64,000 bases of DNA from Candidatus Micrarchaeota archaeon (GTDB lineage: Archaea; Micrarchaeota; Micrarchaeia; Norongarragalinales; SBBD01): contig JBFYLP010000002.1 of assembly GCA_041305345.1 (NCBI GenBank), forward strand, positions 151,480 through 215,479, given 5' to 3'. The notes under the pieces are model-generated. The model was not told where the DNA came from, did no database searches, and saw only the letters and a list, made by a program, of their open reading frames with translations. This document shows positions 21,702 through 49,183 of the stretch, piece by piece. The position numbers and the translations under genes are program-made. Each line of letters begins with the position of its first letter. The first letter of the stretch is position 1.

Positions 21702-21771
21702 GTCTTGATCCCGTTGATTACTCCGCGATCCTTTAAAAAAGATCGTTGGGGTGCATATATCCGGTATTTTG

Positions 21772-22885: not shown

Positions 22886-22956
22886 GCATAAGAAAAATCG
22901 GGGCGTAATTTAAATGTTCGCTTGCGAGGGATCGGCAATTCGGCCGGTAAAAAAAA

Positions 22957-24234: not shown

Positions 24235-24297
24235 GCAATCACATCCTTTTTTTATGCCAGCTTTCCTGCACGATAAATTGGGTTGTAAAAACCCGCC

Positions 24298-31682: not shown

Positions 31683-31698
31683 AGTTACACGCCTCTAA

Positions 31699-31831
31699 CG
31701 CCGGGAGGGAGATTCGAACTCCCGAATCCTTGCGGAAACCAGCTTACTTATTGATTAGGAAATTATTATTCCCTGGGTTGAATTCCCCATCCTACTCAAG
31801 GCTGGCGCATTAACCACTCTGCCACCCCGGC
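31699..31831 (-). tRNA. tRNA-Ser (anticodon UGA inferred) with ~50-nt intron at canonical 37/38; no encoded CCA
   Basis: Minus-strand read GCCGGGG-UG-GCA(D-stem)/UGC, anticodon stem CCAGC...GCUGG interrupted after CUUGAG, class-II variable arm UCCGCAAGGA, T-arm GGGAG-UUCGAAU-CUCCC, acceptor 3' UCCCGGC + discriminator G. Folded by hand. Confidence 0.65.
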
Positions 31832-31891
31832 AAACACGAATAATTTGATGCCCCTGATTAAAAAATACTCGTTAAACTGGTTAGACCAACG

Positions 31892-31927: not shown

Positions 31928-32072
31928 TGGGCCCATAGCTCAACCAGGATAGAGCGACTGGTTCCGATCTTTGCTTTGATCGGGAGTCGATGCTTCGATC
32001 TTGGAAGAGGCCCGGTGTCTCTTCCCAAAGGAAAACACCAGTAGGTTGCGGGTTCAAATCCCGTTGGGCCCG
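31928..32072 (+). tRNA. tRNA-Arg (anticodon CCG inferred) with ~69-nt intron at canonical 37/38
   Basis: GGGCCCA-UA-GCUC/GAGC D-arm, anticodon stem ACUGG...CCAGU separated by 76 nt (UUCCGA | intron | A), T-arm GCGGG-UUCAAAU-CCCGU, acceptor UGGGCCC + discriminator G. Confidence 0.65.
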
Positions 32073-32178
32073 CTAATTGCTTTAAGTTCTTGGCGGCATA
32101 ACCCTTAGGATATTTATTTGAAAGAAATTTTTTCGGAAAGGACACCGATACAGACTTGATTGACATCGCCATTTTCCC

Positions 32179-32637
32179 TCAATACCTCCTTCCCTCACGG
32201 ATGATCACGAATGTCTCAGTGTTTACGACCCCTTCAAACTCGCGCATCTGGCTTATTATGAGCTCCTCCAGCTTATCAATCGATGGAACGTATGCCTTCA
32301 GGATTAGATCCGCACGCCCGGTCACATCCGCAACGAAATCAACATACGGATTTGACATTATCTTGCGCGTTAAGGCCCTCCTTTTTTCCGTATTAAGCTG
32401 GCTGTTGTCCAGCCGGACGAAAATCAGGACTCCAAGCGGTGTGCCTGCCTTCTTGTTGTCCACACGGATGGTCTCACCTAAAATTACCCCGTTTTTCCTC
32501 ATCTGCCTGATACGGTGAAAAACCGTGCTAGGAGGAACTTGGAGACGTTTGGCAAGCTGCTTGTAGGATTGGGAAGCATCCTCGCGCAGAGTTTGGAGTA
32601 GCTCCAAATCAAGTTCATCCAAAAAATATCGATCCAT
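32179..32637 (-). CDS. Lrp/AsnC-family transcriptional regulator
   Basis: LDELDLELLQTLREDASQSYKQLAKRLQVPPSTVFHRIRQMRKNGVI HTH plus a C-terminal RAM domain. Confidence 0.85.
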   Translation of the reverse strand: MDRYFLDELDLELLQTLREDASQSYKQLAKRLQVPPSTVFHRIRQMRKNGVILGETIRVDNKKAGTPLGVLIFVRLDNSQLNTEKRRALTRKIMSNPYVDFVADVTGRADLILKAYVPSIDKLEELIISQMREFEGVVNTETFVIIREGRRY

Positions 32638-32753
32638 ATTGAATATTATCCAAAATAAAGGTTAATAATTGTACGTTTTTAGACAATATCCCAACAAAAT
32701 ATGCAAAAATATATATTAGGGGGTTATCAGAAAGACATGGGGGTGGGAACGAC

Positions 32754-35700
32754 ATGCGAATTCCTTACGAGAGGGCATTTCTGATTTTTGCGTTTTTACT
32801 ATGTGCACCCGCGCTTGTTTTGGCAAAAATGCCAGATAAAGGAATCACGATAGCAGGCGAACTATCAGAGGCAGTGGAAATGCCCACTTCCGCAAATGAG
32901 GTAAAAACACCCATAAATGCGCTTCCGGAACATAAACTTTCAGGCGGGGTGTGCGGCGGGTATATTCCCTGCAGCTGCGGAGATACGGTAATTGCCAATG
33001 CCCTTCTTTCGGGCGACCTGCTCGATTGCCCCGGCATCGGCCTGTATGTGAATACGTCATACGTTACGATAAATTGCAACGGCCATACGATAAGCGGAAG
33101 CGGCGAGCAGGGGATCAGGATTGAAGGTGCGAGCAGCACATCCATCTATGGCTGCGCAATATCCCATTTCACAGTCGGAGTTGAAACGTTTGATTCCAAC
33201 AGGATAACATTGCAGTACAACCAATTCTCGCACAATAATTACGGAATCCTAATTCGGGGAGGGGAATACCATAACATTGGCAATAACGAGTTCACGATAA
33301 TGGACGGCGGCATGAACATCGGCATGGAACTGTATGGACCAACCCATAGCAACTTTCATGGAAACGTCCTAAGGAACATACCGGGATGGGGCATCCGCGC
33401 ATTCGATGGGAGCTATAATCATTTCAATAACAACATATTCGTCCACGTATGGAATGAGGCGATGGATTCGGAATGTTATTCCAAGGAAGGGGATAAATAC
33501 GGCGAACCCAACTATTGGATGGGAAACACCTGGTCGTCTTACCATTACATCGAATATGATGAAGACAATCATGCCTATTACTCAAGCAATGAGGGATACC
33601 CTTATTATTACTCGATACCCGGCGAAAAGGGATCGAAGGACTATAGCCCGAGGCAGTACGCGCCTTCCTATACGACATATTTCTCAATGAATAAGGCGGG
33701 CCCCACCACTGTTTGCGGAAACATCCGGTCGTATGACAACTTCTTTGGAAGGTACGTAACACAAGATAACATCGACTACGGTGCATATGTGATTATGAAT
33801 ACGGGAGATCAAATACCCCCGCAGGCACAAGCAACGTACCTAAGCGGCGGCATCTGGAGCTATTGCATCGATTTTTCCTCAAATTATGTCCCTAACGGCT
33901 CGTATCCAATAGAGGTGTACATTAACGACGCGGCCCCCAAGGTCCAATATTACTCCGTCACGAACACGCAGGTTACTCTTGGCGGATATGTCACCACAGT
34001 TGACGGCAACCCGATACCTGGCGCTCAAGTGTTCCTATTTCGGAAAACAAATTTGAATGTGCCCGTTGCGAGCGTCACGGCCTTCGATGGCCATTTCCAG
34101 TTTGAGGAGGTTATTCCGGGAACGTACTTCCTGCTTGCAGCGGATGGCGCGTTCCTGAACGCATCCAAAGTATCCGTGCAAGTGACAGGGCTTGCGTTAG
34201 AAGTTGCCCAGAACCTTACCCTTATTGCTTTGACGGACACATATAGGGCGCTTTCGCCAATGGTAAGGGACCTGCACATCAACGCCCTCAACATGGATTT
34301 CGATGTCACCCGCATTGCGAACTCGGTTACGCAGCAATTTAAGGATGATCTCGATCCCGACCCCGCCATGACATCGGCGGAAACGCTAATCGACGTCTTT
34401 TCGCCCATCGTGAGCGTAAACACGAAATGGAGGAATTTAGGCAAGCTTGGCAAATATTTCGAAACCGGAAGCATCGAGGTGCTTGGAAAAGCAATAAATA
34501 AAATTGCAAATGCCTGGGATTTTGAGTTAATGGTGCTAAATGGCATCTCGTCTGCGGAGATGGTATTGCTGCAAAACCTGATGGTCCAGCTGCAGGATGA
34601 CATACTGAATAAAAATCCCACAAATTTCTTTTTCTCGCCTTATTACCAGCAGATGCTTTATAGGCACGACATAGTCAAGACGTCATTCGACGCGCAGCTT
34701 GACAATCTGATCGACCCGGATTTCTCCAGGGAAAAAGCGCACGATTTCGTGAACCAGCAGAAATTGTCCGATAAGAAGATTCGGGAATTCGGGATGCAGG
34801 GGCATTATTTTGTTATCCCCGGCGGCACGGTCAACAGAATAAGGATGGGCGGAATCCAACAAGACTATGATTACCTTTCAATGAAGCTGCAGGCGTACGG
34901 CGTTGGGGATATGACCACTAGTGTTGGGTCGCTTACTGCAAACATCGGCTCGGTTTTTTTAATCCGGGCTAAAATGTTCAAGGCGGCGAAGATAACGGAA
35001 GGGGTGGGCTTCGCATTGGATGCGTCCGACGTAATTGCAACATTCCAGACGGCGAAGGCGGGAATGGAAGCGATGCTCTATTATTCGGAATCGGTACCGA
35101 GGGGATGGGCAAAGGACCTTGCAGCCGTTAATTCGCAGTTGAACGAGTCAGTAAGGTTCCTGACAAATGAGGCGAAAATGCCAAGATACCTTCACAGGGA
35201 TAATATTTACGTGGCGGAAATCGAATGGATCGACAAGGCTTGCGATTCCCAGGAGGAAGATATCTGCACATATAACGTGAATTCGTTTGGGAATTCTACG
35301 GAATATGCGGAAATCAGTTTCAATGTTGAAAATTATGTTGAGGATGCGGATATAACCATCGTGCCCACAATCACCATAACGGATAACCCGGATGCGGATA
35401 CCCTATTCATGCTCACTCCGCAGCGGATGGTTCTGGCCCAGGGGCATGGCACAACAGTCGATTACGACCTTCCCCTAAGTTACCTCGGGGCGGGAAAGAA
35501 ACAGTATTTGAGGCTCGATATCTACTATGCCGGGCTGTACAACGACTATATCGACATGACTTTTATGGTGAGGGATCCTATGCTCGAGGATAGGGACTTC
35601 AAAGCGGGAAGGGCATCAAGCAAGGGTAGGCATTCCCTCGGTTTTAGTCTCGACGAGCATATGATGAATTACACCTATATTCACAATGTAACGAATGGCA

Positions 35701-36890
35701 CGGCATCTACGGTAATAAGGAGCTATTCGGGAGCGTTTGGAATATCTGATCTCCATATTTACGACGAGGTTGGGAATCACGTGGGGTATGACTATGAAGC
35801 AGGCGGAGTAGTCTACGGAATTCCTGCAAAATGGTCAAGGAGCCCGATATCCGAAACAATAGAAATACCCGAAACGGGGGGCAAGGGCTATACGATAATG
35901 GTCGAGCTGCGCGATTTCGTCCCGGGCTACGGGGTCAAACATACTTTGGAGATCGAGGATTTGGCGGGAGTGGAGGAAGCTAGCGTGCTCGTAATGTCAG
36001 GGAAAATAAGCAGGTTTGCGGCTGCGGGAGGCGAAATTGAGCTTAATGCGATGGCTTACGAGGCAACGGGCCTCAGGCCTGCAGAGGGAGTTAGTGCGAC
36101 AATAAGCGACCTGAATGATAGCGAAGGCAACAGCCTTCAGCGGCTTTCACCGGACACCCATATATTCAGGCTTGGCGCAGGGGAACAATACCATTACGCC
36201 TTTATTTACAATATCAACGATAGTACGGAATTGGGAACGTACATAGGCACGCTGAACACCACTTTTGGCAACAGTTCGTCAATACAGGAGGTTGAATTGC
36301 ATATTGCCGGGATATGGGATGCGGACTTATCGATGCAAACGCCAAATCAGACCATTGGAATAAATGAAACCGCTACCCTAAGCATCCTGCTAGCTAATTC
36401 GGGGGGGCAACCTGTAAAAGGGGCGTTATTGAACGCGTTCACCAGCGATGAGGGGATTTTGAATATCGAACCGGGAATCCTAAAAACGGATGAATACGGA
36501 AGGTGCGAAGCGCAGATCACCGGGATCGCAGCTGGCAATGCGGTAATCAATTTAATGGATCTGGGGAACGCACATGACGAGTTGAACATCACAATCATCG
36601 AATCCTACGTCTGCGGAGATGCAAATGATGATGAAATCGTGAATATTCTGGATATCCTCTACTTAATTGATTATAAATTCAGGGGAGGGCCGGCGCCTAT
36701 TCCGGTTCTTTCCGGCGATGTGAACCTCGACGGCCTTGTAAACGTGCTCGATATCATCTACCTGATTGATTTTAAATTCAAGAATGGGCCAGCACCCTGC
36801 AGTGCCTCCTCCAGCGGAGGTGAGATGCAGATGAGTTATGAGCAGGTGGTGGAAGAGCTAAATTCCGCTTATAAGCCACCAAACCGATAA
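32754..36890 (+). CDS. 1378-aa secreted multidomain surface protein: right-handed beta-helix (PbH1-like) repeats, carboxypeptidase-regulatory-like domain, Big_2-like Ig domain, C-terminal type-I dockerin
   Basis: Signal peptide. NCNGHTISGSGEQGIRIEGASSTSIYGCAIS...NNYGILIRGGEYHNIGNN are beta-helix repeats. GYVTTVDGNPIPGAQVFLF...FDGHFQFEEVIPGTYFL is CarbopepD_reg-like. Two dockerin Ca-loops, DANDDEIVNILD...LYLIDYKF and DVNLDGLVNVLD...IYLIDFKF. Confidence 0.8.
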   Translation: MRIPYERAFLIFAFLLCAPALVLAKMPDKGITIAGELSEAVEMPTSANEVKTPINALPEHKLSGGVCGGYIPCSCGDTVIANALLSGDLLDCPGIGLYVNTSYVTINCNGHTISGSGEQGIRIEGASSTSIYGCAISHFTVGVETFDSNRITLQYNQFSHNNYGILIRGGEYHNIGNNEFTIMDGGMNIGMELYGPTHSNFHGNVLRNIPGWGIRAFDGSYNHFNNNIFVHVWNEAMDSECYSKEGDKYGEPNYWMGNTWSSYHYIEYDEDNHAYYSSNEGYPYYYSIPGEKGSKDYSPRQYAPSYTTYFSMNKAGPTTVCGNIRSYDNFFGRYVTQDNIDYGAYVIMNTGDQIPPQAQATYLSGGIWSYCIDFSSNYVPNGSYPIEVYINDAAPKVQYYSVTNTQVTLGGYVTTVDGNPIPGAQVFLFRKTNLNVPVASVTAFDGHFQFEEVIPGTYFLLAADGAFLNASKVSVQVTGLALEVAQNLTLIALTDTYRALSPMVRDLHINALNMDFDVTRIANSVTQQFKDDLDPDPAMTSAETLIDVFSPIVSVNTKWRNLGKLGKYFETGSIEVLGKAINKIANAWDFELMVLNGISSAEMVLLQNLMVQLQDDILNKNPTNFFFSPYYQQMLYRHDIVKTSFDAQLDNLIDPDFSREKAHDFVNQQKLSDKKIREFGMQGHYFVIPGGTVNRIRMGGIQQDYDYLSMKLQAYGVGDMTTSVGSLTANIGSVFLIRAKMFKAAKITEGVGFALDASDVIATFQTAKAGMEAMLYYSESVPRGWAKDLAAVNSQLNESVRFLTNEAKMPRYLHRDNIYVAEIEWIDKACDSQEEDICTYNVNSFGNSTEYAEISFNVENYVEDADITIVPTITITDNPDADTLFMLTPQRMVLAQGHGTTVDYDLPLSYLGAGKKQYLRLDIYYAGLYNDYIDMTFMVRDPMLEDRDFKAGRASSKGRHSLGFSLDEHMMNYTYIHNVTNGTASTVIRSYSGAFGISDLHIYDEVGNHVGYDYEAGGVVYGIPAKWSRSPISETIEIPETGGKGYTIMVELRDFVPGYGVKHTLEIEDLAGVEEASVLVMSGKISRFAAAGGEIELNAMAYEATGLRPAEGVSATISDLNDSEGNSLQRLSPDTHIFRLGAGEQYHYAFIYNINDSTELGTYIGTLNTTFGNSSSIQEVELHIAGIWDADLSMQTPNQTIGINETATLSILLANSGGQPVKGALLNAFTSDEGILNIEPGILKTDEYGRCEAQITGIAAGNAVINLMDLGNAHDELNITIIESYVCGDANDDEIVNILDILYLIDYKFRGGPAPIPVLSGDVNLDGLVNVLDIIYLIDFKFKNGPAPCSASSSGGEMQMSYEQVVEELNSAYKPPNR

Positions 36891-37058
36891 CCGCCTATTT
36901 TCCCAAAGCGAGCGGGGCTGCAGCCGGATTTGGGAAAATCAAGCGCACACGCGGATTGACGGATAAGGCAAGCAAAACAAACCCAATAATAACCCCCTGT
37001 CCCGGATTTTTCTTGATCAATTGAATTGTAGAAATTAAAAAACGGCAAAATCCGGAAT

Positions 37059-39095
37059 TTGCAGATAAGAAAATTATTCTGGCGGATTGTGGGCGGTCGA
37101 AAAAAAACCGTTTTTAAGCTTTTATACCTTATCCTTCCGATACGAATGATATTGCTTGCATTGTTTATCCTCACATCAATTCTGGTGGGGTATGCCCTGA
37201 CTGCTAAACTGCGGATTTTCGAGAGTGTCTTTGAAAGGTCTGCTGCTGCGGTGATAACAGGATTGTCCATATCGACACTTGTGTGCTTTGCAATCTCATT
37301 TGCGCTTAATTCGTTGTCCGATTCCTCAATCCTTTTAACGATCATTGCGAACATTTCAGCCGTGATCGTCCTCGTTAGGTACTTTGAGGTCAGGCTGGAT
37401 GAGCAGGTGCCTTTTCTTAGGGGAAAAATCGGCCTGCCGGAATATTCCGTTGCTGGAGTCTTCCTCCTACTCGCATATTTCAATTTCCTATCCCTCTATA
37501 CGGATGGGAACGGCAACGTCTGGGGAATTTCAAATACCTGGGCGGATTATGCGTTCCACGCGGGGATCATAAATTCTTTCGCGCTAAGGGACAATTTCCC
37601 GCCCATCTACCCGAATCTCGAGGGCGCGCAGATGCGCTATCCTTTCATCGTGGACTTCCTTTCCGCAATATTCGTCAAGGGCGGTGTTTCGCTGATAAAT
37701 TCGATGGTCATACCGAACCTGCTGCTGCTGTTCTGCCTGGTGGTGCTGGTGTTTGCGTTCCTGAAGAGGTTCACGAACTCAAGGGAACTTGCGGCGCTTG
37801 CGATGCTATTGTTTTTCCTCAATGGGAATTTGGGGTTCGTGCAGTTCTTCAATGATTACGGATCCGCGCCGGACAAGGCGGCATTCCTTGCGAAGCTGCC
37901 AAAAGCGTATTCATACCTTTCGGCACCGGCGGATAACCTGCAATTCATGAATCTGTCCTACTCGATTTTCATACCCCAAAGGGCGGCACTTATGGGCTTC
38001 CCGGTGGTGATGCTGGTGCTCATCTTGCTGCTAAGAATTCAAAGGAACGAGGCTTGGAGATGGGAGTACTTCCTTGCGGGGGTCCTTGCTGGATTGCTGC
38101 CGCTGATCCACGCAAGCTCTTTTGCAATTGCTGCAATTGCGTGCTGCTGGATTTTCCTCATCACGATCGTGAAGAAGCGAAGGATCGACAATAAGTGGCT
38201 GCTGTTCGCACTTCCATTCATACTGCTTGCAGTGCCCCAGCTTATTTTCATAAACGAACAGGGGAGGACGCCGGATTTCCTTGGTTTGCAGGTCGGATGG
38301 ATGAGCAAAGCGGGTGATTACGGGGATTTCATTCGGTTCTGGATCAACAATGTAGGGGTGATCCTGATTCTGGGGATGCTGGGCCTTGTGCTCCTAAGGC
38401 GGGAGCAAATCGCTTTCATGCTCCCGTTCCTAGCGCTCTTTGCTGCAGCCAACCTTATCAGGTTCCAGCCGTGGGAATGGGACAACATGAAGGTGTTCCT
38501 TTATTGGTTCCTCTTCAATTGCATTGCTGCGGCGTATTTCGTGAAGGCGATTTATGAGGGCGCAAGCGCATTTCCCAATGAGAGCAAATACCAAAGCCAG
38601 TATGGAAGGAATGCGTCTAGATTTTTCGGAGCCGCAGTGGTTTTCCTCGTATTATTTTTCTGCACATTTTCGGGCCTGCTTACGTTTGCCTATTGGAACA
38701 CGAGCGGCGCGATGCTCTGGAGCGTGGAGGACCAGAAGGTGGCAAAATTCATTTCGGAAAATACCATGAAGGATGCGGTTTTCCTGACTGCCGGGAAGCA
38801 CAACCACATCGCATACACCCTCGCAGGAAGGCAGATACTAGCGGGATACGATGGCCACCTATGGTCGCACGGTTTGGACTATTCGGAGCAGGCAAGCGAT
38901 GCTAGGCAAATCTATGCTACGGCTGATTCGAACCTCATTGAAAAATGGGGCATTGATTACGTCTATATTGGGCCGCAGGAAGTGAACGAGGAATGGCACG
39001 CGAATGTGAATGCATTTGCGAACAGCGCAAATTTCGAAGGGATTTATGAGAACAGGGTCAATTCGGTTGCGATTTTCAAATACGTCGGGAAATAG
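37059..39095 (+). CDS. polytopic membrane protein, putative GT-C-fold glycosyltransferase (PMT/ArnT/YfhO-like) with C-terminal extracytoplasmic domain
   Basis: 678 aa, >10 TM helices, then a soluble C-terminal ~170-aa domain (ISENTMKDAVFLTAG...YENRVNSVAIFKYV) homologous to the domain in 40531..41067. Confidence 0.45.
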   Translation: MQIRKLFWRIVGGRKKTVFKLLYLILPIRMILLALFILTSILVGYALTAKLRIFESVFERSAAAVITGLSISTLVCFAISFALNSLSDSSILLTIIANISAVIVLVRYFEVRLDEQVPFLRGKIGLPEYSVAGVFLLLAYFNFLSLYTDGNGNVWGISNTWADYAFHAGIINSFALRDNFPPIYPNLEGAQMRYPFIVDFLSAIFVKGGVSLINSMVIPNLLLLFCLVVLVFAFLKRFTNSRELAALAMLLFFLNGNLGFVQFFNDYGSAPDKAAFLAKLPKAYSYLSAPADNLQFMNLSYSIFIPQRAALMGFPVVMLVLILLLRIQRNEAWRWEYFLAGVLAGLLPLIHASSFAIAAIACCWIFLITIVKKRRIDNKWLLFALPFILLAVPQLIFINEQGRTPDFLGLQVGWMSKAGDYGDFIRFWINNVGVILILGMLGLVLLRREQIAFMLPFLALFAAANLIRFQPWEWDNMKVFLYWFLFNCIAAAYFVKAIYEGASAFPNESKYQSQYGRNASRFFGAAVVFLVLFFCTFSGLLTFAYWNTSGAMLWSVEDQKVAKFISENTMKDAVFLTAGKHNHIAYTLAGRQILAGYDGHLWSHGLDYSEQASDARQIYATADSNLIEKWGIDYVYIGPQEVNEEWHANVNAFANSANFEGIYENRVNSVAIFKYVGK

Positions 39096-39136
39096 GAAGA
39101 GAGGATGTGTTTGGCAATTTGCTAATTCGGCCCGTT

Positions 39137-40534
39137 CTACTCTTCCCTCTGCTTGTCGTGGAGATGCCTTAGGAATTCGTAGAGTGAAGTGGTGCCAAGC
39201 GCTGCAAGGAGTATTAAGGGCTGCTGGAGATAGACGAGGAAGCGGTCCATGAATACGCGTGGGCCCGGAATGGGGCCAAATGCGTCGTTTTTTACTGCAA
39301 GGAACCCTGCTGCAAACAGCGCGAATAGGAACAGGAAAGCGGTCTTCTCCGATTGCGTAAAGATCCTAGGGCCGTCAAAGAGCACCCGGGAAATTACTAC
39401 TCCTGCGAAGCCTGCAATTATGGAAATTACCATTATTTCTGACCCGGCGAACATTGGCATTGGGATCGATATCAGCGGCTGCGAACCATGGAAGGAAAAG
39501 TTATTGAGCACGAGGTAGGTGAGGAACGCCCCGGCGAGGAATGTAAGGAAGGTGCGTAGGCCCATCGCGTAAGTTTCGCTGATTCGGGGCAGATCCTCGA
39601 CCATCCGCTTGAAGAAATATGAAAAAACAACAAGGAGGCCGGCAAGGGAGAAGGCAACGACGAGTAGACCCGTCTTTAGGATGTAGGAATCCATGCTGAC
39701 GACGTTTCCCTCGTGGTTCTTGAACTGCGCAAGCTCGAATACGTTGAAATGGCCTATCATCACGAACTGCCAAACCAGATATGCAATTACAGCAAGGAAG
39801 GAGGATGCAACAGCTAGCTGGAGCACATCTGAATGGGCCTTTATGTCAAAGGATTTGCCAACCCAAACCCTCCAAACCATATGCAGGATGATGAACATTG
39901 CGTATGCGCCAAAACCTGCAACCAGGAACGCTGCGGCCTCCTGATGCGTCATCGTAACGATGAAGGATAGGAGAAGCGCGAGATCCCAGCGCTTGATGAA
40001 GAATGCGTGGAATGCAACTGGAAGCAGGATGAGGCCCATTGCCTGCGGGAGCGGCCTTACCGTATAAATGAGCAGTTCTCCTGGGAGCACTGAGAGGAAA
40101 GCGGCAAACACTCCGACGGATCCGTTGAAAAGCCTTTTCCCCAGGACGTAAAAACCAAGGGGCACCATCACCGAAAATAAAAGCACAAGGAACCGGCTCG
40201 CAAGGTCAAGCGACATTCCCGTAAGAAGGACAACGACGGCGAGAAGGATGCGGTAGGCGGGGATGTACAGGTTGGGCACACCTCCTCCATAGGAATAGTC
40301 TATTAGCGGGTAAGTTTCATGCTCGACAACGTGCCTTGCGCTTGCAACGTGGATCATCGTGTTGCCGTAGGTTGGCATATGCCATTCACGGAGCACCATC
40401 CAGTGGGTGTGGAGGGAGAGGATGATTGCAAATAAAAGCAGGAATGCTCCCTTGTGCGCAATTATGTATTTGAGCCCCGTTTTTGCATAATCAATGGGCT
40501 GCTTTTTTTGCGTCTCTCCTAGCATAAGAATCAC
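39137..40534 (-). CDS. polytopic membrane protein (GT-C-like / DUF2079-like), possibly translationally coupled to 40531..41067
   Basis: 465 aa, ~12 TM helices. 4-nt overlap with the upstream ORF on the same strand. Confidence 0.45.
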   Translation of the reverse strand: MILMLGETQKKQPIDYAKTGLKYIIAHKGAFLLLFAIILSLHTHWMVLREWHMPTYGNTMIHVASARHVVEHETYPLIDYSYGGGVPNLYIPAYRILLAVVVLLTGMSLDLASRFLVLLFSVMVPLGFYVLGKRLFNGSVGVFAAFLSVLPGELLIYTVRPLPQAMGLILLPVAFHAFFIKRWDLALLLSFIVTMTHQEAAAFLVAGFGAYAMFIILHMVWRVWVGKSFDIKAHSDVLQLAVASSFLAVIAYLVWQFVMIGHFNVFELAQFKNHEGNVVSMDSYILKTGLLVVAFSLAGLLVVFSYFFKRMVEDLPRISETYAMGLRTFLTFLAGAFLTYLVLNNFSFHGSQPLISIPMPMFAGSEIMVISIIAGFAGVVISRVLFDGPRIFTQSEKTAFLFLFALFAAGFLAVKNDAFGPIPGPRVFMDRFLVYLQQPLILLAALGTTSLYEFLRHLHDKQREE

Positions 40535-41067
40535 TTGACCCGATAAATCTCCATATCCCCTTCATCATACACCAGTTCAAAATATTGCGCGTTCCTAAGG
40601 GTGCTCCTCTCGACGGGCATCCATTCGAAGCCGGCGAACACTTGCCGGTTGGGTGCGAGCACGTACGCTGCGGAATACTTTTTTGCTATTTCGTATGCGC
40701 GCTTCGCATCCGTGGTTTTATAGAATTCGTTTATTTCGCCCATCCGCTCAACCACGTTGGGCACGATCGCCCAATCGCCGCCCTCGGTGCCCTCGCGCAG
40801 GGTTTCGCCCATCATATGCTCGCCTCCGAAGATGTCCGTAACGAATACTTCCCTTTCGGGCGTATTTTCCCTGATCCATTCCATCGTTCGCTCCTCCTCC
40901 TGCGTAATTACCGGCGACATCCACGCATCCGCCTGCCCTTTCGCCTTGTTCATGTCCTCGTTGTAATAAAATGCAATGCCCCCCGCTACTGCGAGGGAAA
41001 TGAGGTAGAATAGGAGAAGGATGCCGGTCCTTATGGGCGCACTAAGCAACAAATTGGCCATATCCAC
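40531..41067 (-). CDS. membrane-anchored protein with extracytoplasmic domain paralogous to C-terminal domain of 37059..39095
   Basis: N-terminal TM, then EWIRENTPEREVFVTDIFGGEHM...AQYFELVYDEGDMEIYRVK, which aligns with the C-terminus of the 678-aa protein. Confidence 0.45.
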   Translation of the reverse strand: MDMANLLLSAPIRTGILLLFYLISLAVAGGIAFYYNEDMNKAKGQADAWMSPVITQEEERTMEWIRENTPEREVFVTDIFGGEHMMGETLREGTEGGDWAIVPNVVERMGEINEFYKTTDAKRAYEIAKKYSAAYVLAPNRQVFAGFEWMPVERSTLRNAQYFELVYDEGDMEIYRVK

Positions 41068-42875: not shown

Positions 42876-43047
42876 TTTCGTTCATTGAACATAATAAGGG
42901 ATATTTTGACATAGTTTAGCCGAATTGGGCTGATTTTTGCTTATTTTTTGTTTTCGGGCCGTATTTTCGTTCATTTTGCCGGAGTTTTTCGAATAAGAGA
43001 ATATTTATATATACCAAATAGCACTTAGCTATAACGTGGGGGGGAAC

Positions 43048-43341
43048 ATGGATGCTGAAATAGGGCTAGTTTACCAATTCGTAATGGTAGCAGCAGCCAT
43101 TTGGTTATTCGTCCATCTCACGTTTGGATTTGGAACGATTAGGGAAGCAATATTTCTTGGATTCCTGGGAATCATGATGCTCTTCCTGATGGAAGGTGCA
43201 AGCAGAATCGTTTTTTCAGTGGTTTTCATCGCAGGCGGGCTGCTAGCAATGCGGGCCTATAAGGTCGATATGAGGGCGGGAGCGATGTTCGTCCTTTGCG
43301 TTGCTGCAATCAGCCAATTCATGTTTCCCTTTGCCGAATGA
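43048..43341 (+). CDS. small 3-4-TM membrane protein, paralog A of a tandem triplicated family
   Basis: VAAAIWLFVHLTFGF...IAGGLLAMRAYKVD...VAAISQFMFPF resembles the two downstream ORFs. TATA-like ATTTATATATA lies ~40 nt upstream. Confidence 0.45.
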   Translation: MDAEIGLVYQFVMVAAAIWLFVHLTFGFGTIREAIFLGFLGIMMLFLMEGASRIVFSVVFIAGGLLAMRAYKVDMRAGAMFVLCVAAISQFMFPFAE

Positions 43342-43460
43342 TATGAATAAAATGCAAGTGACATCCATGGACAAAATAATGGTCCTGGCCCGCGGACCGA
43401 TTTTTGAATTGGGCGAGCCGTATTCCGGGGCGGCATGCTTCTTTGTTTGATGTGGTCGAT

Positions 43461-43781
43461 ATGCAAGTTACGTACCTTGGCGACATGGTTTACAGCTCGG
43501 ATTTCCTCTTCGCCCTCCTCATATTGACCATTGCAATCTGGCTCGTATTGAAGTTCCTATTCAATTTCGATTCGATGAACCACGCGCTGGTGTTTGCGAT
43601 CCTCGCGATGGTGATGCTGCCCTTCATTTTCACAGCTACGCAGATTTGGACTTCATTTTTCGTGGTTCTCATACTCGGAGGACTTGCGATATCGCAGGCA
43701 TACAAATGGCCAATAGGAACAAGCATCCTTATGTGCTTCATCGCATTGATCGCGGCTTCGATTCTGCTTCCCGCGCTTTAG
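43461..43781 (+). CDS. small membrane protein, paralog B
   Basis: LLILTIAIWLVLKFLFNFDSMNHALVFAILAMVMLPFIFTA...LGGLAISQAYKW...IALIAASILLPAL is clearly homologous to paralog C. Start taken at MQVTYLGD. Confidence 0.45.
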   Translation: MQVTYLGDMVYSSDFLFALLILTIAIWLVLKFLFNFDSMNHALVFAILAMVMLPFIFTATQIWTSFFVVLILGGLAISQAYKWPIGTSILMCFIALIAASILLPAL

Positions 43782-43790
43782 GTGGAATGA

Positions 43791-44114
43791 ATGGACGCGT
43801 ATTACCTCTCGGAGATTTTCTTCAACCAGGGATTCCTCCTAGGCTACATTTTCCTCACGATGCTCATATGGATTTTCCTTAGGACCGGGTTCGACTATGA
43901 CAATTTCGGCCAGGCGGCAATCATCGCATTGGTGGGGATAATTTTCATGCCTTCGATTGTAGCGGCAATGAGCCAAAGCGGCTCCGCATTCCTTTTAATC
44001 CTGCTCCTTTTAGGCTTGGCAATATCGAGCTCGTATGGCTGGAACCTGTCGGCAACGATGCTGATATTGGTGCTCGCTGTTTATTCAGCTGCGATGATTT
44101 TGCCTCGGCTTTAA
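43791..44114 (+). CDS. small membrane protein, paralog C
   Basis: IFLTMLIWIFLRTGFDYDNFGQAAIIALVGIIFMPSIVAA...LGLAISSSYGWN...LAVYSAAMILPRL. Confidence 0.45.
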   Translation: MDAYYLSEIFFNQGFLLGYIFLTMLIWIFLRTGFDYDNFGQAAIIALVGIIFMPSIVAAMSQSGSAFLLILLLLGLAISSSYGWNLSATMLILVLAVYSAAMILPRL

Positions 44115-44475: not shown

Positions 44476-45444
44476 ATGGGAGACAAGGGACCCCGCAGGG
44501 GATCGGTTGCGTACTGGCACAGGAAGCGTGCATCGAGCCTAGTCCCAAGGGTGCGCGCGTGGGCAGGAGGCGGCAAGGGCTTGCAGGGCTTCCTTGCATA
44601 CAAGGCGGGGATGGGCCAGGTAATGATGATCGAGGATTCGGAATCGCCTTTCAAAAACCAGGAGGTTGTGAAGGCAGCAACCGTACTCGAGGTTCCGCCG
44701 GTTTACGTTTATGCCGTCACTGCATATGAAAATTCGGAAACGGGCCTTAGAAAAATTGCAGAGATACCTGCATTCAATGCCCCAAAGCAGCTGAAACGCA
44801 CGCTTACCCTTGCGAAAAAATCAAAGATGAAGCTGGAGGAGCTCAAGGCCGGGGCGCTAGCTGATGTGCGCGTGATCGTTTCTGCGCAGCCCTGGAAAGC
44901 CGACCTGAAGAAGACGCCCGAGGTGGCGGAGATTGGGATTGCCGGAAAGGATGCCAGTGAAAAGCTTGCGTATGCAAAGGAGGTCCTTGGGAGGGAACTT
45001 GTGGCATCGGACGTATTCGTCGATGGCGATTTCGTGGATGTTATTGCCGTTACTAAAGGGAAAGGCTGGCAGGGAATAGTGAAAAGATTCGGTGTTGCTT
45101 TGGGGCCAAGGAAGGCAACACAGAGGAGAAGGCACGGCGGCTCAATTGGGCCCGAAACGCAGGCAAAGGTCATGTACACCATTCCACGCGCAGGCCAGAT
45201 GGGTTTCCATAGGAGGACCGATTCCAACAAGCGCATATTGCAAATCGGGGATCCTTCAATAGTCAAGGGAATTGCGCCGGCAGCTGGCTTCGAGGGATAC
45301 GGCGTCGTAAAGGCCGAGTTCCTGCTGGTAGAGGGCAGTGTTCCCGGGCCGGAGAAAAGGGCAATGATCGTAAGGAAGAATTTCGAAGGGAAGGCTGCGA
45401 AGAAGCCCGATGTCCGGAAGTTGCTCTTCAATGCGAAGGAGTGA
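44476..45444 (+). CDS. rpl3: 50S ribosomal protein uL3
   Basis: MGDKGPRRGSVAYWHRKRA... N-terminus plus conserved W/G-rich core. Standard position at the head of the operon. Confidence 0.95.
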   Translation: MGDKGPRRGSVAYWHRKRASSLVPRVRAWAGGGKGLQGFLAYKAGMGQVMMIEDSESPFKNQEVVKAATVLEVPPVYVYAVTAYENSETGLRKIAEIPAFNAPKQLKRTLTLAKKSKMKLEELKAGALADVRVIVSAQPWKADLKKTPEVAEIGIAGKDASEKLAYAKEVLGRELVASDVFVDGDFVDVIAVTKGKGWQGIVKRFGVALGPRKATQRRRHGGSIGPETQAKVMYTIPRAGQMGFHRRTDSNKRILQIGDPSIVKGIAPAAGFEGYGVVKAEFLLVEGSVPGPEKRAMIVRKNFEGKAAKKPDVRKLLFNAKE

Positions 45445-45492
45445 ACTCGTGCAATCCGCTGAATTGGGTTGCAATTATAATTCATAGGAAAG

Positions 45493-46305
45493 TTGGTAAA
45501 AATGCAGGCAAAGGTTTTTGATCTGGAAGGAAAGGAATTGAGGCAGGTAGGCCTCCCGCCCCAGTTCGATTGCGAGCTAAGGCCGGATTTGGTTAGGCGC
45601 GCGTTCCTATCCGAGAGGAGCTACTTCCTGCAGCCAAAGGGCGTATACCCCCGCGCAGGCCTTGAGAATACCGCGGAATACTACGGAAGGAGGCACGCTT
45701 GGAGGCAAACGATCAACACCGGAAGGAGCAGGCTGCCAAGGGAAAAGCTTCCCGGCGGAAGGAGCGGAAGGGTGCTTAGGGTTCCGCACGCGGTGAAGGG
45801 AAGGAGGGCACATCCGCCAAAGCCGCAAACGCGAATAATTGAGAGGATCAACCTGAAGGAAAAATTCTTTGCAATAAGAAGCGCAATTGCCGCAACGGCA
45901 AAATCGGAAATGGTGGCAGCAAGGGGCCACATCCTCGATGGTGCGGTGATTCCTTGCATCGTCGATAATTCTTTGGAGGGAGTAAAGAAGGCGAAGGCTG
46001 CGCGTGAGATACTTGGGAAATTGGGCGTAGGGAAGGACCTTGAACGTGCTGCGGTTCGGAGGAAGATGAGGAGCGGAAGGGCAAGGCTTCGGAAGGGAGG
46101 GTACATAACCCCAAAAAGCGTCCTGATCGTTGTTGGGAAGGATGAGGGCATATGGAAGGCGGCACGCAACATTCCCGGAGTCGACGTGTGCATCGTTGGA
46201 AAATTGACAGCTGAGCTGCTAGCTCCTGGCGGGAATGCTGGAAGGCTGACGATATGGACCGAGGGAGCGGTCCAAAAAATGCAGGCCGAAGGCCTATATA
46301 TGTGA
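45493..46305 (+). CDS. rpl4: 50S ribosomal protein uL4
   Basis: KVFDLEGKELRQVGLP...FLSERSYFLQPKGV is the uL4 pattern. Operon position. Confidence 0.9.
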   Translation: MVKMQAKVFDLEGKELRQVGLPPQFDCELRPDLVRRAFLSERSYFLQPKGVYPRAGLENTAEYYGRRHAWRQTINTGRSRLPREKLPGGRSGRVLRVPHAVKGRRAHPPKPQTRIIERINLKEKFFAIRSAIAATAKSEMVAARGHILDGAVIPCIVDNSLEGVKKAKAAREILGKLGVGKDLERAAVRRKMRSGRARLRKGGYITPKSVLIVVGKDEGIWKAARNIPGVDVCIVGKLTAELLAPGGNAGRLTIWTEGAVQKMQAEGLYM

Positions 46306-46310
46306 TAAGA

Positions 46311-46559
46311 ATGGCAATACTTTACGCTTTGACAACCGAAAAATCAGTGGCAATGATCGAGAAGGAGAACAAGCTCACGTTCATCGTGGAGCGCTCGGAT
46401 ACGAAGAAGACGGTGGCGGCGGACCTGCTTAAGAATTTCAATGAAAAGGTAAGGGAGGTCCGGATGATCAACGCTTTCTCCGGAAAGAAGAAGGCGATTG
46501 TAAAGTTTGAAAGGAAGGGTGCGGCACCCGACGTGGCTGCAAAACTGAAACTCATCTAA
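46311..46559 (+). CDS. rpl23: 50S ribosomal protein uL23
   Basis: MAILYALTTEKSVAMIEKENKLTFIVERSDTKKTV... Operon position. The ORF table starts at 46254 inside uL4. Confidence 0.9.
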   Translation: MAILYALTTEKSVAMIEKENKLTFIVERSDTKKTVAADLLKNFNEKVREVRMINAFSGKKKAIVKFERKGAAPDVAAKLKLI

Positions 46560-46568
46560 GTGATTTTA

Positions 46569-47318
46569 ATGGGAACTCATCTGGTCGTTCAAAAAAGGGG
46601 GCGCGGAGGCCCGGCATACAGGGCGCCCACCCACAGGTACGTATCCGATGCGAAATACCCAAGGATGAAGGCGGAGAAGATGCGCGCGGAAGTAATTGGA
46701 TTCGTGCAGGATCCCTCGAAGGACGTATTGCTTGCAAGGCTTTTGCTCGATGACAAGAGGAACGCCTACATTATTGCAGCCGAGGGCCTAAGGAGGGGGC
46801 ACATCATCGAATTTGGGAAGGGCGCGGCAATCAACATCGGCAACATCACAACCCTAGAAAACGTGCCGGATTCCTCGGTTGCATACAACGTCGAGCTCCA
46901 GCCATTCGATGGCGGAAGGCTTGCAAGGGCGGGGGGGGCATTCGTATCCGTTGTATCGCACGACGAGGATACCGGGCTTGTGGAAGTGCAGCTTCCATCA
47001 AAGAAGACGGTAATGCTAGACAAGGATTGCTTTGCCACTTTGGGAATTGCCAGCGGCGGGGGAAGGACGGAAAAACCGCTGAAAAAGGCGGGCACAGCAT
47101 TCTACAAATGGCATTCCAGGAACAAGTACTGGCCAATTGTAAGAGGAGGCGCAATGAGCGCGTACGACCATCCTCACGGAGGCAAGAGCTTCGGGAAGAG
47201 CTCGATGGTAAGGCGCGGAACCCCTGCTGGCAAATATGTCGGGCACCGCGCAGCAAGCAGGACCGGCAGGAGGGTGGGCAAGGAGGACAAGGCTAAGGAA
47301 ACCGGGAAGAAGCAATAA
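46569..47318 (+). CDS. rpl2: 50S ribosomal protein uL2
   Basis: MGTHLVVQKRGRGGPAYRAPTHRY...HPHGGGEG-like GAMSAYDHPHGGKSFGK. Confidence 0.95.
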   Translation: MGTHLVVQKRGRGGPAYRAPTHRYVSDAKYPRMKAEKMRAEVIGFVQDPSKDVLLARLLLDDKRNAYIIAAEGLRRGHIIEFGKGAAINIGNITTLENVPDSSVAYNVELQPFDGGRLARAGGAFVSVVSHDEDTGLVEVQLPSKKTVMLDKDCFATLGIASGGGRTEKPLKKAGTAFYKWHSRNKYWPIVRGGAMSAYDHPHGGKSFGKSSMVRRGTPAGKYVGHRAASRTGRRVGKEDKAKETGKKQ

Positions 47319-47329
47319 TGGTGAAATGA

Positions 47330-47713
47330 ATGGTCAAGAAATTCCTTTTCAAGGGGCTAGAATCCGAGGAGCTAAAAAGGCTCCCCTTGGATAAATTCAT
47401 CCCGCTGATACCAACCAAGATGCGCCGGAGCATCAGGCGGATGGCAACAAAGATGAAGAAGTTCATAACAAAGCTTAGGACAAGCGACCCAAAAAAGCCC
47501 ATAAGGACGCAAATGAGGGAAATGGTCGTCATCCCCGAAATGATCGATCGGCAATTCCAGGTGCATAACGGGAAGGACTACATGATCGTTGTCGTGACGC
47601 CGCAGATGCTTGGGAAGCGTCTTGGCGATTTTTCCATTCCAATCAAGCTGGTCAAGCATTCCGGACCTGGAATCGGCGCAACAAGGGGTTCGAAGTCAGT
47701 TGAACTTAAGTGA
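47330..47713 (+). CDS. rps19: 30S ribosomal protein uS19
   Basis: HNGKDYMIVVVTPQMLGKRLGDFSIPIKLVKHSGPGIGATRGS. Confidence 0.95.
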   Translation: MVKKFLFKGLESEELKRLPLDKFIPLIPTKMRRSIRRMATKMKKFITKLRTSDPKKPIRTQMREMVVIPEMIDRQFQVHNGKDYMIVVVTPQMLGKRLGDFSIPIKLVKHSGPGIGATRGSKSVELK

Positions 47714-47719
47714 GTACCT

Positions 47720-48271
47720 ATGGGTTTGTATAAATTTTCTTTCAAAGTGAAGGACGAGAGGGAGGTTGCAAGGGCGCAGGCGTACGACATGGACGCAAGC
47801 TACAAGGACCTATCCAACGTGCTGGCCGCAATCAAGGGGAAGACAGTTGGGAAAGCCGAGGCGGTCCTCAACGATTGCATAAAGATGAAAAAGGCAATCC
47901 CGTACCGGAAATTCAACAAGCACCTTGGCCATAGGGGCGAGCTTGGCGGCAGGAAGGGCAGGTATCCAAGGAAGGAGGCAAAGATCGCATTGACGCTGCT
48001 CAAAAGCGCGGAAGGGAATGCGAATTTCAAGGGGCTCGATGCTAGCGTGCTCATTGTAAGGCAGGCTGCGGCATACAAGCAGAATGTGATGAGGAGGTAC
48101 AGGCAGCATTTCGGTTCTTCGATCACGCTCGGATACGGGAAGCAGGCGATCTGGGCAAATTACGAGACGTGCCGCGCGGAAATCGTGCTGGCAAAGGGAA
48201 GCGCTCGGGACCTTGCAAGGATGGCAAAGGCCCAAGGGAAAGAGAAGCAGAAAACCAAGACAAAGAAATGA
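47720..48271 (+). CDS. rpl22: 50S ribosomal protein uL22
   Basis: uL22 fold pattern plus a K-rich C-terminal tail. Operon position. Confidence 0.9.
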   Translation: MGLYKFSFKVKDEREVARAQAYDMDASYKDLSNVLAAIKGKTVGKAEAVLNDCIKMKKAIPYRKFNKHLGHRGELGGRKGRYPRKEAKIALTLLKSAEGNANFKGLDASVLIVRQAAAYKQNVMRRYRQHFGSSITLGYGKQAIWANYETCRAEIVLAKGSARDLARMAKAQGKEKQKTKTKK

Positions 48272-48298
48272 TCTTTTTTGCATTGAGAGGTAGATACG

Positions 48299-49183
48299 GT
48301 GGCAACTGAAAAGAAATTCCTGGCAAAATCGCTAAACGACCTCCTGATAAAGGGGTACCTGGAAGGCGAGCTGAAGAATGCTGGCGTCTCAAGCATCGTG
48401 ATACAAAAGACCCCCCTGGCAACAAGGATTGCAATCAGGGTGAAGAAGCCCTCGCTCGTGATTGGGAAGAAGGGCGCAACCGTAAAGAACATCACCGAGA
48501 AGTTGGAAAAGGATTTCGGGATCGATAATCCCCAGCTGGACATCATCGAGGTCGAGAATGCAAGCCTGGATGCGAAATTGGTCGCCGAAAGGATCTCAAG
48601 GCAGATCGAGATCGAAGGCAACATCAAGCAGATAATGCGCATGAACCTAAGGGACGTGATTGAGGCCGGGGGCGTGGGAGTCGAGATCCAGGTTTCCGGC
48701 AAGGTCGTTGGAAAAGGCGGGAAGGCAAAGGCAATACGGGTTCGCAGCGGCTTTCTTAAGAAGGCGGGCGACCTGCTAAAATTGATCGACAAGGGAACCA
48801 GCACCGCATACCTGAAGGCAGGTGCAATTGGGGTAACGGTGAAGATCGTAAGGCCGGGCACGGTATTTCCCGATGCAATAAGCATCGACTACGCGAGCCT
48901 TGCAACTACCAAATTCGAGGAGCCAACAGGCGAGAAAACGGAAGAGCAGAAGGCACTGGATGAGGCCGAGAGGAAATTGAGGGAGAAGATCGAGCAGGCA
49001 AAACGGGAGGCAAAGGAGAAGGCGCAGAAAAGGAAGAAGTTCACAAGGCCTATCAAGAAGAAACCGGCCTATGAAGCGGAGAACCTGATCAAGAGTGCGG
49101 AAGTGGGCGAAAATCTGCAAAAGAAAGCGGCTAGCACTGCGCCCGCGCAACCTGCTGAGTCAACCCCCGCAGAAGGTAAATGA
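48299..49183 (+). CDS. rps3: 30S ribosomal protein uS3
   Basis: KH domain IAIRVKKPSLVIGKKGATVKNITEKLEK, uS3 C-domain, K/E-rich C-terminal extension. GTG start. Confidence 0.95.
   Translation: MATEKKFLAKSLNDLLIKGYLEGELKNAGVSSIVIQKTPLATRIAIRVKKPSLVIGKKGATVKNITEKLEKDFGIDNPQLDIIEVENASLDAKLVAERISRQIEIEGNIKQIMRMNLRDVIEAGGVGVEIQVSGKVVGKGGKAKAIRVRSGFLKKAGDLLKLIDKGTSTAYLKAGAIGVTVKIVRPGTVFPDAISIDYASLATTKFEEPTGEKTEEQKALDEAERKLREKIEQAKREAKEKAQKRKKFTRPIKKKPAYEAENLIKSAEVGENLQKKAASTAPAQPAESTPAEGK

Follow-up and report, generated by a model that had tools for sequence, protein, structure and literature searches.

How is a large secreted protein with a C-terminal dockerin held at the surface of an archaeon, and are the membrane protein genes next to it dedicated to its glycosylation and anchoring? 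This question is raised by a 64-kb stretch of contig JBFYLP010000002.1 of a Candidatus Micrarchaeota archaeon (64,000 nucleotides, hereafter the window, to which all coordinates refer unless a comparative locus is named). In this stretch a gene for a protein of 1378 amino acids (aa), hereafter the big gene, is accompanied upstream by a divergent Lrp/AsnC-type regulator gene and downstream by a trio of genes for proteins of 649, 465, and 178 aa. A first, sequence-only reading had proposed a cellulosome-like assembly, in which the big protein is glycosylated and anchored by a pathway of its own under control of the Lrp regulator. Our best explanation, with a probability of about 0.6, is that the big gene encodes a secreted, fast-evolving modular surface protein of Micrarchaeota with a dockerin, and that it resides in a lineage-specific slot insert beside a core trio.

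The archaeal host assumed in the sequence-only reading is borne out by introns in two tRNA genes and by the fact that, for the big protein as well as the two membrane proteins, each close homologue with a named source belongs to Candidatus Micrarchaeota. Furthermore, an archaeal-type ribosomal-protein cluster is situated downstream of the locus.

Domain architecture of the secreted protein

The big gene is an intact and complete open reading frame (ORF; 32754..36890, +). Hydropathy analysis of its product yielded one hydrophobic segment (residues 5-28) and nothing else resembling a transmembrane (TM) helix, and thus the protein is presumed to be secreted without a membrane anchor of its own. 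As already proposed, the segment is consistent with a cleavable Sec-type signal peptide (approximately residues 1-25, 32754..32828), for which cleavage is predicted between MRIPYERAFLIFAFLLCAPALVLA and K.

The mature protein starts with a Cys-rich, capped right-handed parallel beta-helix head (residues 60-400, 32931..33953), recognized by Pfam Beta_helix (residues 96-232, 41.6 bits, cut-off 25.9), Pfam NosD (residues 103-263, 40.4 bits, cut-off 23.6), and the parallel beta-helix repeat family TIGR03804 of NCBIfam (21.3 bits, cut-off 19.45). Due to the low score of the NosD equivalog TIGR04247 (19.7 compared to a cut-off of 300), the protein is not regarded as a NosD orthologue. Adjacent to the head lies a transthyretin-like CarboxypepD_reg beta-sandwich (residues 408-478, 33975..34187, 35.2 bits, cut-off 32.3). 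Both the beta-helix repeats and this domain had been named in the sequence-only reading, and both score above the curated Pfam cut-offs.

The following orphan region (residues 480-974, 34191..35675) has a single homologue, P0002, among 1.84 billion representative proteins searched with residues 485-1189 by HMMER without filters. An AlphaFold2 (AF2) model of residues 476-985 was built from a two-sequence alignment and reached a predicted local distance difference test (pLDDT) score of 36 and a predicted template-modelling (pTM) score of 0.27, so only its secondary structure was used. It predicts about 335 all-alpha residues followed by a beta-rich part or beta-sandwich.

Next to the orphan region, the HMMER search delimited a two-domain beta module of about 200 aa (residues 975-1189, 35676..36320). 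This module (approximately residues 975-1187) is common to about 19 other multi-domain surface proteins, of which the named ones are from metagenome-assembled genomes (MAGs) of Methanosarcinales. Their further domains are of the CARDB, PKD, NosD, Big_1, and CarboxypepD_reg types, and one of the proteins (P0014) includes a dockerin. The module starts with the motif DLHxYD..GNHVG and ends in a NEW3/CARDB/GH123_N-like sandwich; the region of the motif resembles, as we presume, sandwiches of the PPC type. Profile and sequence searches of the PDB gave no informative match for this PPC-like/NEW3 module. A hidden cohesin was considered for residues 975-1189 and rejected, since members of the module match NPCBM_assoc and GH123_N sandwiches, never Cohesin.

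The module is followed by an immunoglobulin (Ig)-like domain (residues 1192-1266, 36327..36551). Of the Big_2-like Ig domain in the sequence-only reading the Ig-like character stands and the family does not: the match is to Pfam Big_1, with 27.3 bits (E 4e-6) below the cut-off of 34.9. The protein ends with the dockerin described below. Neither Pfam nor NCBIfam detected any glycoside hydrolase (GH), polysaccharide lyase (PL), carbohydrate esterase (CE), or carbohydrate-binding module (CBM) family in the 1378 aa.

Two other identities were tried and rejected. An S-layer protein in the sense of the families TIGR01564 and TIGR01567, or of the surface-layer protein of Micrarchaeum harzensis (bioRxiv 10.1101/2021.04.28.441871), is not indicated, as NCBIfam gave no match to TIGR01564 or TIGR01567. 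A tailspike or prophage origin is contradicted by the presence of a signal peptide and by a search of PHROGs, which returned no viral family for the big protein.

The attribute giant does not suit the protein by the measure of its own lineage, since a beta-helix protein at the related locus L005 exceeds 3484 aa. The latter (L005 14817-21887, +, cut) contains NosD/Beta_helix, GH25 lysozyme, and PKD domains and is situated right after LigT. Beta-helix surface proteins, some of them dockerin-tagged, seem to be a theme of the Micrarchaeota.

A two-segment type-I dockerin

The C-terminal module, from Cys1287 to Cys1349 (36612..36800), is by profile and motif a genuine two-segment type-I dockerin, as the sequence-only reading had supposed. 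Pfam Dockerin_1 (PF00404) matches residues 1288-1338 with 28.1 bits (cut-off 22.9, E 2.4e-6) over profile positions 2-53 of 57. The two loops, DANDDEIVNILD (residues 1289-1300) and DVNLDGLVNVLD (residues 1322-1333), comprise 12 residues each with D, N, D, N, and D at positions 1, 3, 5, 9, and 12, so that all Ca-ligand positions are intact. Each loop is followed by the motif LYLID(Y/F)KF..GPAP, helical as judged from the sequence pattern, and over loop plus helix the two segments are identical in 18 of 27 positions (67%). Clostridial type-I dockerins are the only informative sequence matches of the whole protein in the PDB (E 0.013-0.5).

The closest relatives of the module by sequence are C-terminal modules of bacterial proteases, which are Cys-flanked and show the pattern xxVNIxDxVYLIxYxFxGGPxP. 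As the window dockerin is bracketed by C1287 and C1349, so are the closest bacterial dockerin-like modules, P0003-P0005 (CGDCDN...GGPSPC). The Cys pair suggests a disulfide clasp specific to a 'GGPAP' subtype of dockerins. In canonical type-I dockerins a Ser-Thr pair at loop positions 10-11 contacts the cohesin; the window dockerin has hydrophobic residues (IL/VL) there.

Within the phylum, a 683-aa NosD/Beta_helix protein of another Micrarchaeote (L004 21302-21974, -, cut) ends in a dockerin which is 53% identical (E ~1e-16 to 1e-18). Thus the dockerin appears to be a recurrent and mobile tag on beta-helix proteins of the Micrarchaeota.

Divergence from the only full-length relative

Among 5.8 billion proteins, a single full-length relative of the 1378-aa protein was found: P0002, encoded at locus L001 of a Micrarchaeota MAG, with 34% identity over 89% of the query. 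It occurs in the same synteny as the window protein, yet lacks the dockerin and a Big_1 call; its C-terminus consists of a Pro/Thr linker and, after it, a short tail with Cys. Identity to P0002 amounts to 60-61% in the beta-helix head, 30% in CarboxypepD_reg, 24% in the orphan region, and 30% in the beta module, and falls below detection in the Big_1 region, compared to 55-79% for the flanking genes of L001. The big gene is therefore the fastest-evolving of its neighbourhood, with a conserved N-terminal head. Such a combination of a conserved head and a diverged remainder is usual for exposed surface proteins with a functional tip distal to the attachment end.

The conservation of the head also bears on the possibility that it is an enzyme, i.e., a polysaccharide lyase, hydrolase, or epimerase-like protein displayed by means of the dockerin and acting on glycans of a host or of the environment. 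Many enzymes that cleave glycans are built on a right-handed beta-helix, no other part of the protein is conserved as well as the head, and the giant NosD/beta-helix protein of the related Micrarchaeote also carries a GH25 lysozyme domain. This is opposed by the lack of any catalytic family (GH, PL, CE) in the Pfam and NCBIfam searches, by the lack of any solved enzyme among the sequence matches, and by the many archaeal PbH1/NosD-like surface proteins that are non-catalytic binders. An enzymatic head, compatible with our best explanation, is thus regarded as improbable.

At L001 an intact gene for a 105-aa small membrane protein is located between the big gene and the GT-C gene (L001 6465-6782, -). 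The window contains at 36895-37020 (-) a 41-codon ORF with residual DNA similarity to it, probably a decayed remnant of this gene.

The 649-aa membrane glycosyltransferase

Three polytopic GT-C-like proteins had been claimed downstream of the big gene. This is confirmed for one of them, the 649-aa protein encoded on the same strand (37146..39095, +); the remaining two genes lie on the opposite strand, and the product of 178 aa, as read from its sequence, does not qualify as polytopic. The 649-aa gene most probably begins with the ATG at 37146, which agrees with the public annotation P0025, since the start ATGATATTGCT is conserved in four loci. A TATA-like TTTTATA approximately 25 nt upstream is conserved along with this ATG and gives the gene a promoter-like element of its own.

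Sequence comparison gave only sub-threshold similarities to TgpA_N, DUF6798, DUF6541, and Dpy19 for the 649-aa family; no Pfam or NCBIfam family was reached at curated cut-off and no informative sequence or profile match was obtained in the PDB. The assignment was provided by an AF2 model from a 43-sequence alignment (pLDDT 94.2, pTM 0.94): the top 18 Foldseek matches of this model are all GT-C proteins (E 2e-8 to 1.6e-4), by which the predicted GT-C membrane fold is confirmed at the level of the model. The C-terminal globular domain is like that of AglB/PglB and resembles that of AglB-S2.

In the 43 sequences, D134 is invariant and D170 is conserved in at least 90%; H138 is invariant as well. 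D134 and D170 lie between the model helices 97-116 and 183-210, with the D134/H138 segment preceding Y165 and D170. From the helix order of the model we infer that the D134 segment forms the first external loop. In GT-C enzymes, catalytic acids are characteristically located in this loop. Furthermore, R279 and a QPW(E/D)WDNxK motif, situated before the penultimate TM helix, are conserved.

An orthologue of STT3/AglB/PglB was considered and rejected, since no STT3 profile matched and no WWDYG follows the last TM helix. Compared to the known GT-C enzymes STT3/AglB/PglB, ArnT, AftA/AftD, DPY19, and ALG12, the 649-aa protein differs in reaching no Pfam or NCBIfam family at curated cut-off and in carrying QPW(E/D)WDN instead of WWDYG.

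The 465-aa and 178-aa proteins

The genes for the 465-aa protein (39137..40534, -) and the 178-aa protein (40531..41067, -) converge on the GT-C gene. As read from the sequence, the former product is a hydrophobic protein of the membrane in which no soluble domain is obvious; in the latter, a hydrophobic stretch at the N-terminus precedes a soluble domain. As the 178-aa reading frame extends 4 bp into the beginning of the 465-aa gene, both products are probably co-translated.

The soluble domain of the 178-aa protein and the C-terminal domain of the 649-aa product are paralogues (BLASTP, 24% identity, E 2e-5), and the 178-aa product also matches the C-terminal ends of DUF6541 (Pfam, 1.4e-5) and TIGR03662 (4e-6). 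The 465-aa family appears restricted to the Micrarchaeota. Two of its members are named 'glycosyltransferase family 39' by NCBI, and single members match DUF6541 (2.5e-9), PMT_2 (1.9e-4), and Glyco_transf_22. Comparison of the 465-aa with the 649-aa family by hhalign was not significant (probability 3.6-14.6%), and the PDB yielded no profile match for the 465-aa family. Where the 649-aa family has its invariant Asp, the aligned residue of the 465-aa family is an invariant Asn (PTYGNTxIH). Membership of the 465-aa protein in GT-C is thus weakly indicated. The most economical, unproven reading of the pair is a split and order-swapped GT-C, with the 178-aa globular half first and the 465-aa TM half second.

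Is the trio dedicated to the surface protein?

The occurrence of the trio was surveyed in the genomic context of 649-aa relatives and in 79 loci from species-representative genomes, each of which was searched with every part of the window locus. Genes like those for the 649-aa, 465-aa, and 178-aa proteins occur together in 17 distinct loci of Micrarchaeota and two of Undinarchaeota, in many cases beside LigT. A homologue of the big protein was found in one of these 19 loci only (L001, the same as L011). The trio of L005 is as similar to that of the window as the trio of L001 (53-69% identity), and its gene order runs from a thioredoxin-reductase-like (PyrRedox) gene over two tRNA genes directly to the trio, with no Lrp or big gene in between. 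Elsewhere, the slot holds three unrelated ORFs (L006) or a 953-aa PKD protein (L003), and in more distant Micrarchaeota a polytopic protein of 360-380 aa.

The empty slot of L005 and the other comparative loci indicate that the Lrp gene and the big gene form one insertion/deletion unit in a variable slot, which extends from a tRNA pair to the core gene set. GC content and GC content at third codon positions (GC3) are 0.486/0.562 for the Lrp gene and 0.485/0.569 for the big gene, compared to a GC3 of 0.62-0.67 for the trio. Both genes are thus only slightly below the trio and similar to LigT and HhH-GPD, and a signal of horizontal transfer drawn from these values is not decisive.

Since the trio recurs in 19 DPANN loci, 18 of which lack the big protein, a dedicated glycosylation and anchoring pathway is not supported. 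In that proposal, the dockerin takes part in a cellulosome-like assembly, the three adjacent GT-C-like proteins glycosylate and anchor the big protein, and the divergent Lrp gene controls the unit. Several observations speak for it: the dockerin is real, at least one of the adjacent genes encodes a genuine GT-C that works on the external side of the membrane, the gene order of L001 is identical, the Lrp and big genes co-occur, and five loci have a large, putatively secreted protein just upstream of the GT-C gene. As to the last point, a large ORF with a hydrophobic N-terminus is located directly upstream of and on the same strand as the GT-C gene in five of the 16 loci with enough upstream sequence, but these upstream ORFs of different loci are not homologous to one another. 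Further evidence against the proposal comes from L005, where the trio is present and the slot is empty, from the location of two of the three trio genes on the opposite strand, from the promoter-like element of the GT-C gene, and from the N-X-S/T sequons, which are not enriched in the big protein (16 observed, 12 +/- 3.2 in shuffled sequences). The term cellulosome-like is not supported either, as no catalytic module of a carbohydrate-active enzyme (CAZyme), be it GH, PL, or CE, was detected in the big protein, and no cohesin or scaffoldin among the scanned ORFs of the window (see below). The model of a dedicated pathway is therefore largely refuted by comparative genomics and has become very improbable indeed.

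The distribution of the 649-aa family points in the same direction. A scan of species-representative genomes with an alignment of 10 close sequences as query identified 252 relatives, including members in Micrarchaeota, Undinarchaeota, Bathyarchaeia, Methanoperedens, Patescibacteria, Chloroflexota, and Dormibacterota. This distribution far exceeds any association with the big protein. The GT-C may glycosylate envelope proteins in general, perhaps including this one.

How the protein may be held at the surface

According to our best explanation, the dockerin would plug the C-terminus non-covalently into an envelope protein that carries a cohesin and has its gene elsewhere. Between the orphan alpha region and the dockerin, three to four beta-sandwich domains would serve as spacers, and the beta-helix head would be displayed outward at the end of a long stalk, where it would presumably bind a glycan or possibly cleave one. 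The trio would represent core DPANN envelope machinery, made up of a full-length GT-C and a probable split GT-C, and would contribute at most a general glycosylation of surface proteins. Tethering by the dockerin is proposed on account of the experimentally verified archaeal cohesin-dockerin pairs (PMC9012536); cohesin-mediated tethering specifically rests on this analogy and is advanced tentatively, at somewhat less than even odds.

Several findings weigh against this explanation. No cohesin or scaffoldin was detected (Pfam, E <= 0.01) in the scanned part of the 64-kb window, which comprised the five genes of the locus, the ten largest ORFs outside it, and about 35 more; the scan left out the ribosomal-protein and ATP-binding cassette (ABC)-transporter ORFs at 44476-49183 and 56075-62711, with the exception of 56825-58378. 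Likewise, six Micrarchaeota loci have no cohesin in their precomputed Pfam lists, and hence the cohesin partner is hypothetical. P0002 manages without a dockerin, so tethering is not essential to the core function. About 500 residues (approximately 480-975) have no family and no relative except P0002 and are structurally unexplained, and for the beta-helix head no solved structure in the PDB was matched by sequence or profile. Finally, the large upstream ORFs in five of 16 loci leave room for a loose association of substrate and enzyme.

The missing cohesin invites the alternative that the dockerin works without one, either as a Ca-dependent stabilizing or clasp module, as a binder of another ligand (a lipid, a glycan, or the S-layer), or as a sorting tag at the C-terminus. 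To our knowledge, many bacteria and archaea carry dockerins of the 'GGPAP' type without a detectable cohesin. Such a function is in agreement with the result of the cohesin scan in the window and the related loci, with the Cys-flanked dockerins of bacterial proteases as closest relatives, and with the residues IL/VL at loop positions 10-11. Archaea with dockerins, moreover, often lack scaffoldins (PMC9012536). On the other hand, the archaeal dockerins tested so far bind their cognate cohesins, according to Haimovitz 2008 as cited in PMC9012536, and the cohesin search covered just 64 kb of the genome, on a contig of 297,668 bp. Compared to tethering by a cohesin, this alternative appears doubtful.

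A further possibility concerns contact between species. Presumably, the source Micrarchaeote is an episymbiont like its cultivated relatives. The beta-helix protein could then be plugged into a cohesin of the host envelope, or a dockerin/cohesin network of the host could have been captured. This is very unlikely. If true, the cohesin-dockerin pair would be a determinant of host recognition, which would explain why the dockerin is present in one lineage and missing from the sister orthologue.

The tRNA pair, the Lrp gene, and the divergent intergenic region

The variable slot is bounded by a divergent tRNA pair, i.e., tRNA-Thr(TGT) with a 50-nt intron (31698..31832, -, Rfam 45.3 bits) and tRNA-Arg(CCG) with a 69-nt intron (31929..32073, +, Rfam 52.5 bits). 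Rfam placed them at 31699-31831 and 31929-32072, and both were also predicted by ARAGORN with the intron option (-i). With their introns they are far longer than a standard tRNA and were missed by ARAGORN in default mode. In L005 the equivalent pair is located directly before the GT-C gene, and tRNA genes also occur in L003.

The adjacent divergent Lrp gene of the sequence-only reading is present (32179..32637, -). Both domains expected of the Lrp/AsnC family of transcription regulators, HTH at the N-terminus and RAM at the C-terminus, were found by Pfam (AsnC_trans_reg 50.9 bits, HTH_24 46.1, HTH_AsnC-type 40.2); no NCBIfam equivalog cut-off was reached. Its product is 78-79% identical to the L001 orthologue, and the gene is thus the best conserved of the neighbourhood.

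Pairwise alignment of the 116-bp intergenic region between the Lrp and the big gene (32638..32753) revealed blocks identical to L001 despite the diverged coding sequences, among them CATATTGAATATTATCCAA (32635-32653) and TTAATAATTGTA (32662-32673), the latter followed by a T-run. Two further blocks are a TATA-like ATATATT (32710-32716), situated 38-44 nt before the ATG of the big gene, and a G-run resembling a Shine-Dalgarno sequence (32739-32746) just before this ATG. We read these blocks as a divergent pair of archaeal promoters, perhaps accompanied by an Lrp site. The position of the presumed Lrp-side promoter, approximately 25-33 nt upstream of the Lrp ATG, suggests a leaderless mRNA. In the loci compared, the Lrp gene and the big gene were gained or lost together, a co-inheritance which to a modest degree fits a pair of regulator and target.

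Further observations in the window

Two clusters (3210-6619 and 56075-60870, both +) pair a secreted CARDB plus NPCBM_assoc (NEW3) protein with genes for an ABC ATPase and a MacB/FtsX-type permease. The CARDB/NEW3 proteins are encoded at 3957-5300 and 56825-58378, and a gene for a PadR regulator lies ahead of the second cluster. At 8140-11940 (-) a 1266-aa superfamily-1 helicase-like protein is encoded, with DUF4011, AAA_11/AAA_12, and a C-terminal restriction-endonuclease-like MTES_1575 domain; this may be a defence or repair gene.

A set resembling a soluble hydrogenase, in a reduced DPANN genome, is located at 20955-24783 (-) and comprises a NiFe-hydrogenase large subunit (22957-24234), a small-subunit-like Oxidored_q6 protein (24298-24783), and an FAD/NAD-binding oxidoreductase (20955-21881). 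Downstream of the trio, three tandem genes (43036-44114, +; 101, 125, and 107 aa) encode similar hydrophobic products with no family match. Comparable ORFs of 96-106 aa occur at the equivalent place, upstream of the ribosomal-protein L3 gene, in L001 and L004. Parts of an enzyme that utilises phosphoenolpyruvate (PEP)/pyruvate are encoded by separate genes at 1343-2425 (+), 49808-51334 (-), and 53359-54324 (-). The last of these consists of PPDK_N alone, and the two others, which are different proteins, each end in a PEP-utilizers mobile domain.

Relation to known systems and significance

The claim that dockerins are rare and poorly understood in archaea was overstated, as non-cellulosomal dockerins and cohesins of archaea have been described since 1999. 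As recounted in PMC9012536, they were reported for Archaeoglobus fulgidus in 1999 (Bayer) and surveyed in 2009 (Peer). In ANME-1/-2, proteins with dockerins and cohesins are abundant and extensively catalogued (Chadwick 2022, PMC9012536), and the dockerins of archaea show specific binding to cohesins and are found on surface proteins that are not cellulolytic (PMC9012536). The window protein resembles those of A. fulgidus and ANME in its C-terminal two-segment type-I dockerin, in being a secreted, non-cellulolytic multi-domain envelope protein, and in the lack of an evident multi-cohesin scaffoldin. It differs from them in its host, a Micrarchaeote, in its passenger, where a beta-helix head and an orphan alpha region take the place of a substrate-binding protein or S-layer domain, and in its dockerin, which is Cys-flanked and hydrophobic at loop positions 10-11.

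With the dockerins of clostridial cellulosomes (C. thermocellum CelS/Cel48S; PDB 2mte, 1daq, 3ul4) it shares PF00404, the duplicated 12-residue loop plus helix, and the C-terminal position. Unlike the clostridial enzymes, it contains no GH or CBM modules, is accompanied by no scaffoldin among the scanned window ORFs, and belongs to an archaeon with a reduced genome.

Similar proteins have been reported from small bacteria. A giant ORF of an ultra-small bacterium of the Omnitrophota contains nine non-cellulosomal dockerin domains, which were proposed as adhesin modules (PMC10066038). It likewise codes for a secreted modular protein rich in beta-helix and Ig domains, in a probably host-associated organism with a small genome. 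The window protein is much smaller, archaeal, and equipped with a single dockerin, and an adhesion role could be assigned to it by analogy only. In an epibiotic Saccharibacterium, the essential envelope proteins include one with a dockerin domain, which was speculated to target host glycans.

In the searchable literature no paper brings Micrarchaeota and dockerins together, and the examined literature on DPANN and dockerins describes no dockerin of an archaeal DPANN member. The dockerin protein is thus at best a first observation in its phylum, with an orphan central region, and not a new mechanism. Since non-cellulosomal dockerins of the archaeal envelope are established and the dedicated pathway does not withstand comparative genomics, the locus adds little conceptually.

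If the dockerin is functional, it would offer a testable handle on the assembly and attachment of surface proteins in DPANN archaea, for which the molecular basis of host contact has remained largely obscure so far. The module of about 60 residues could be expressed alone to fish for its partner. The more interesting and durable by-products are the uncharacterised, widespread GT-C family and the DPANN-conserved, split-GT-C-like pair, which represent candidate enzymes for envelope glycosylation in organisms that are unable to make their own sugars.

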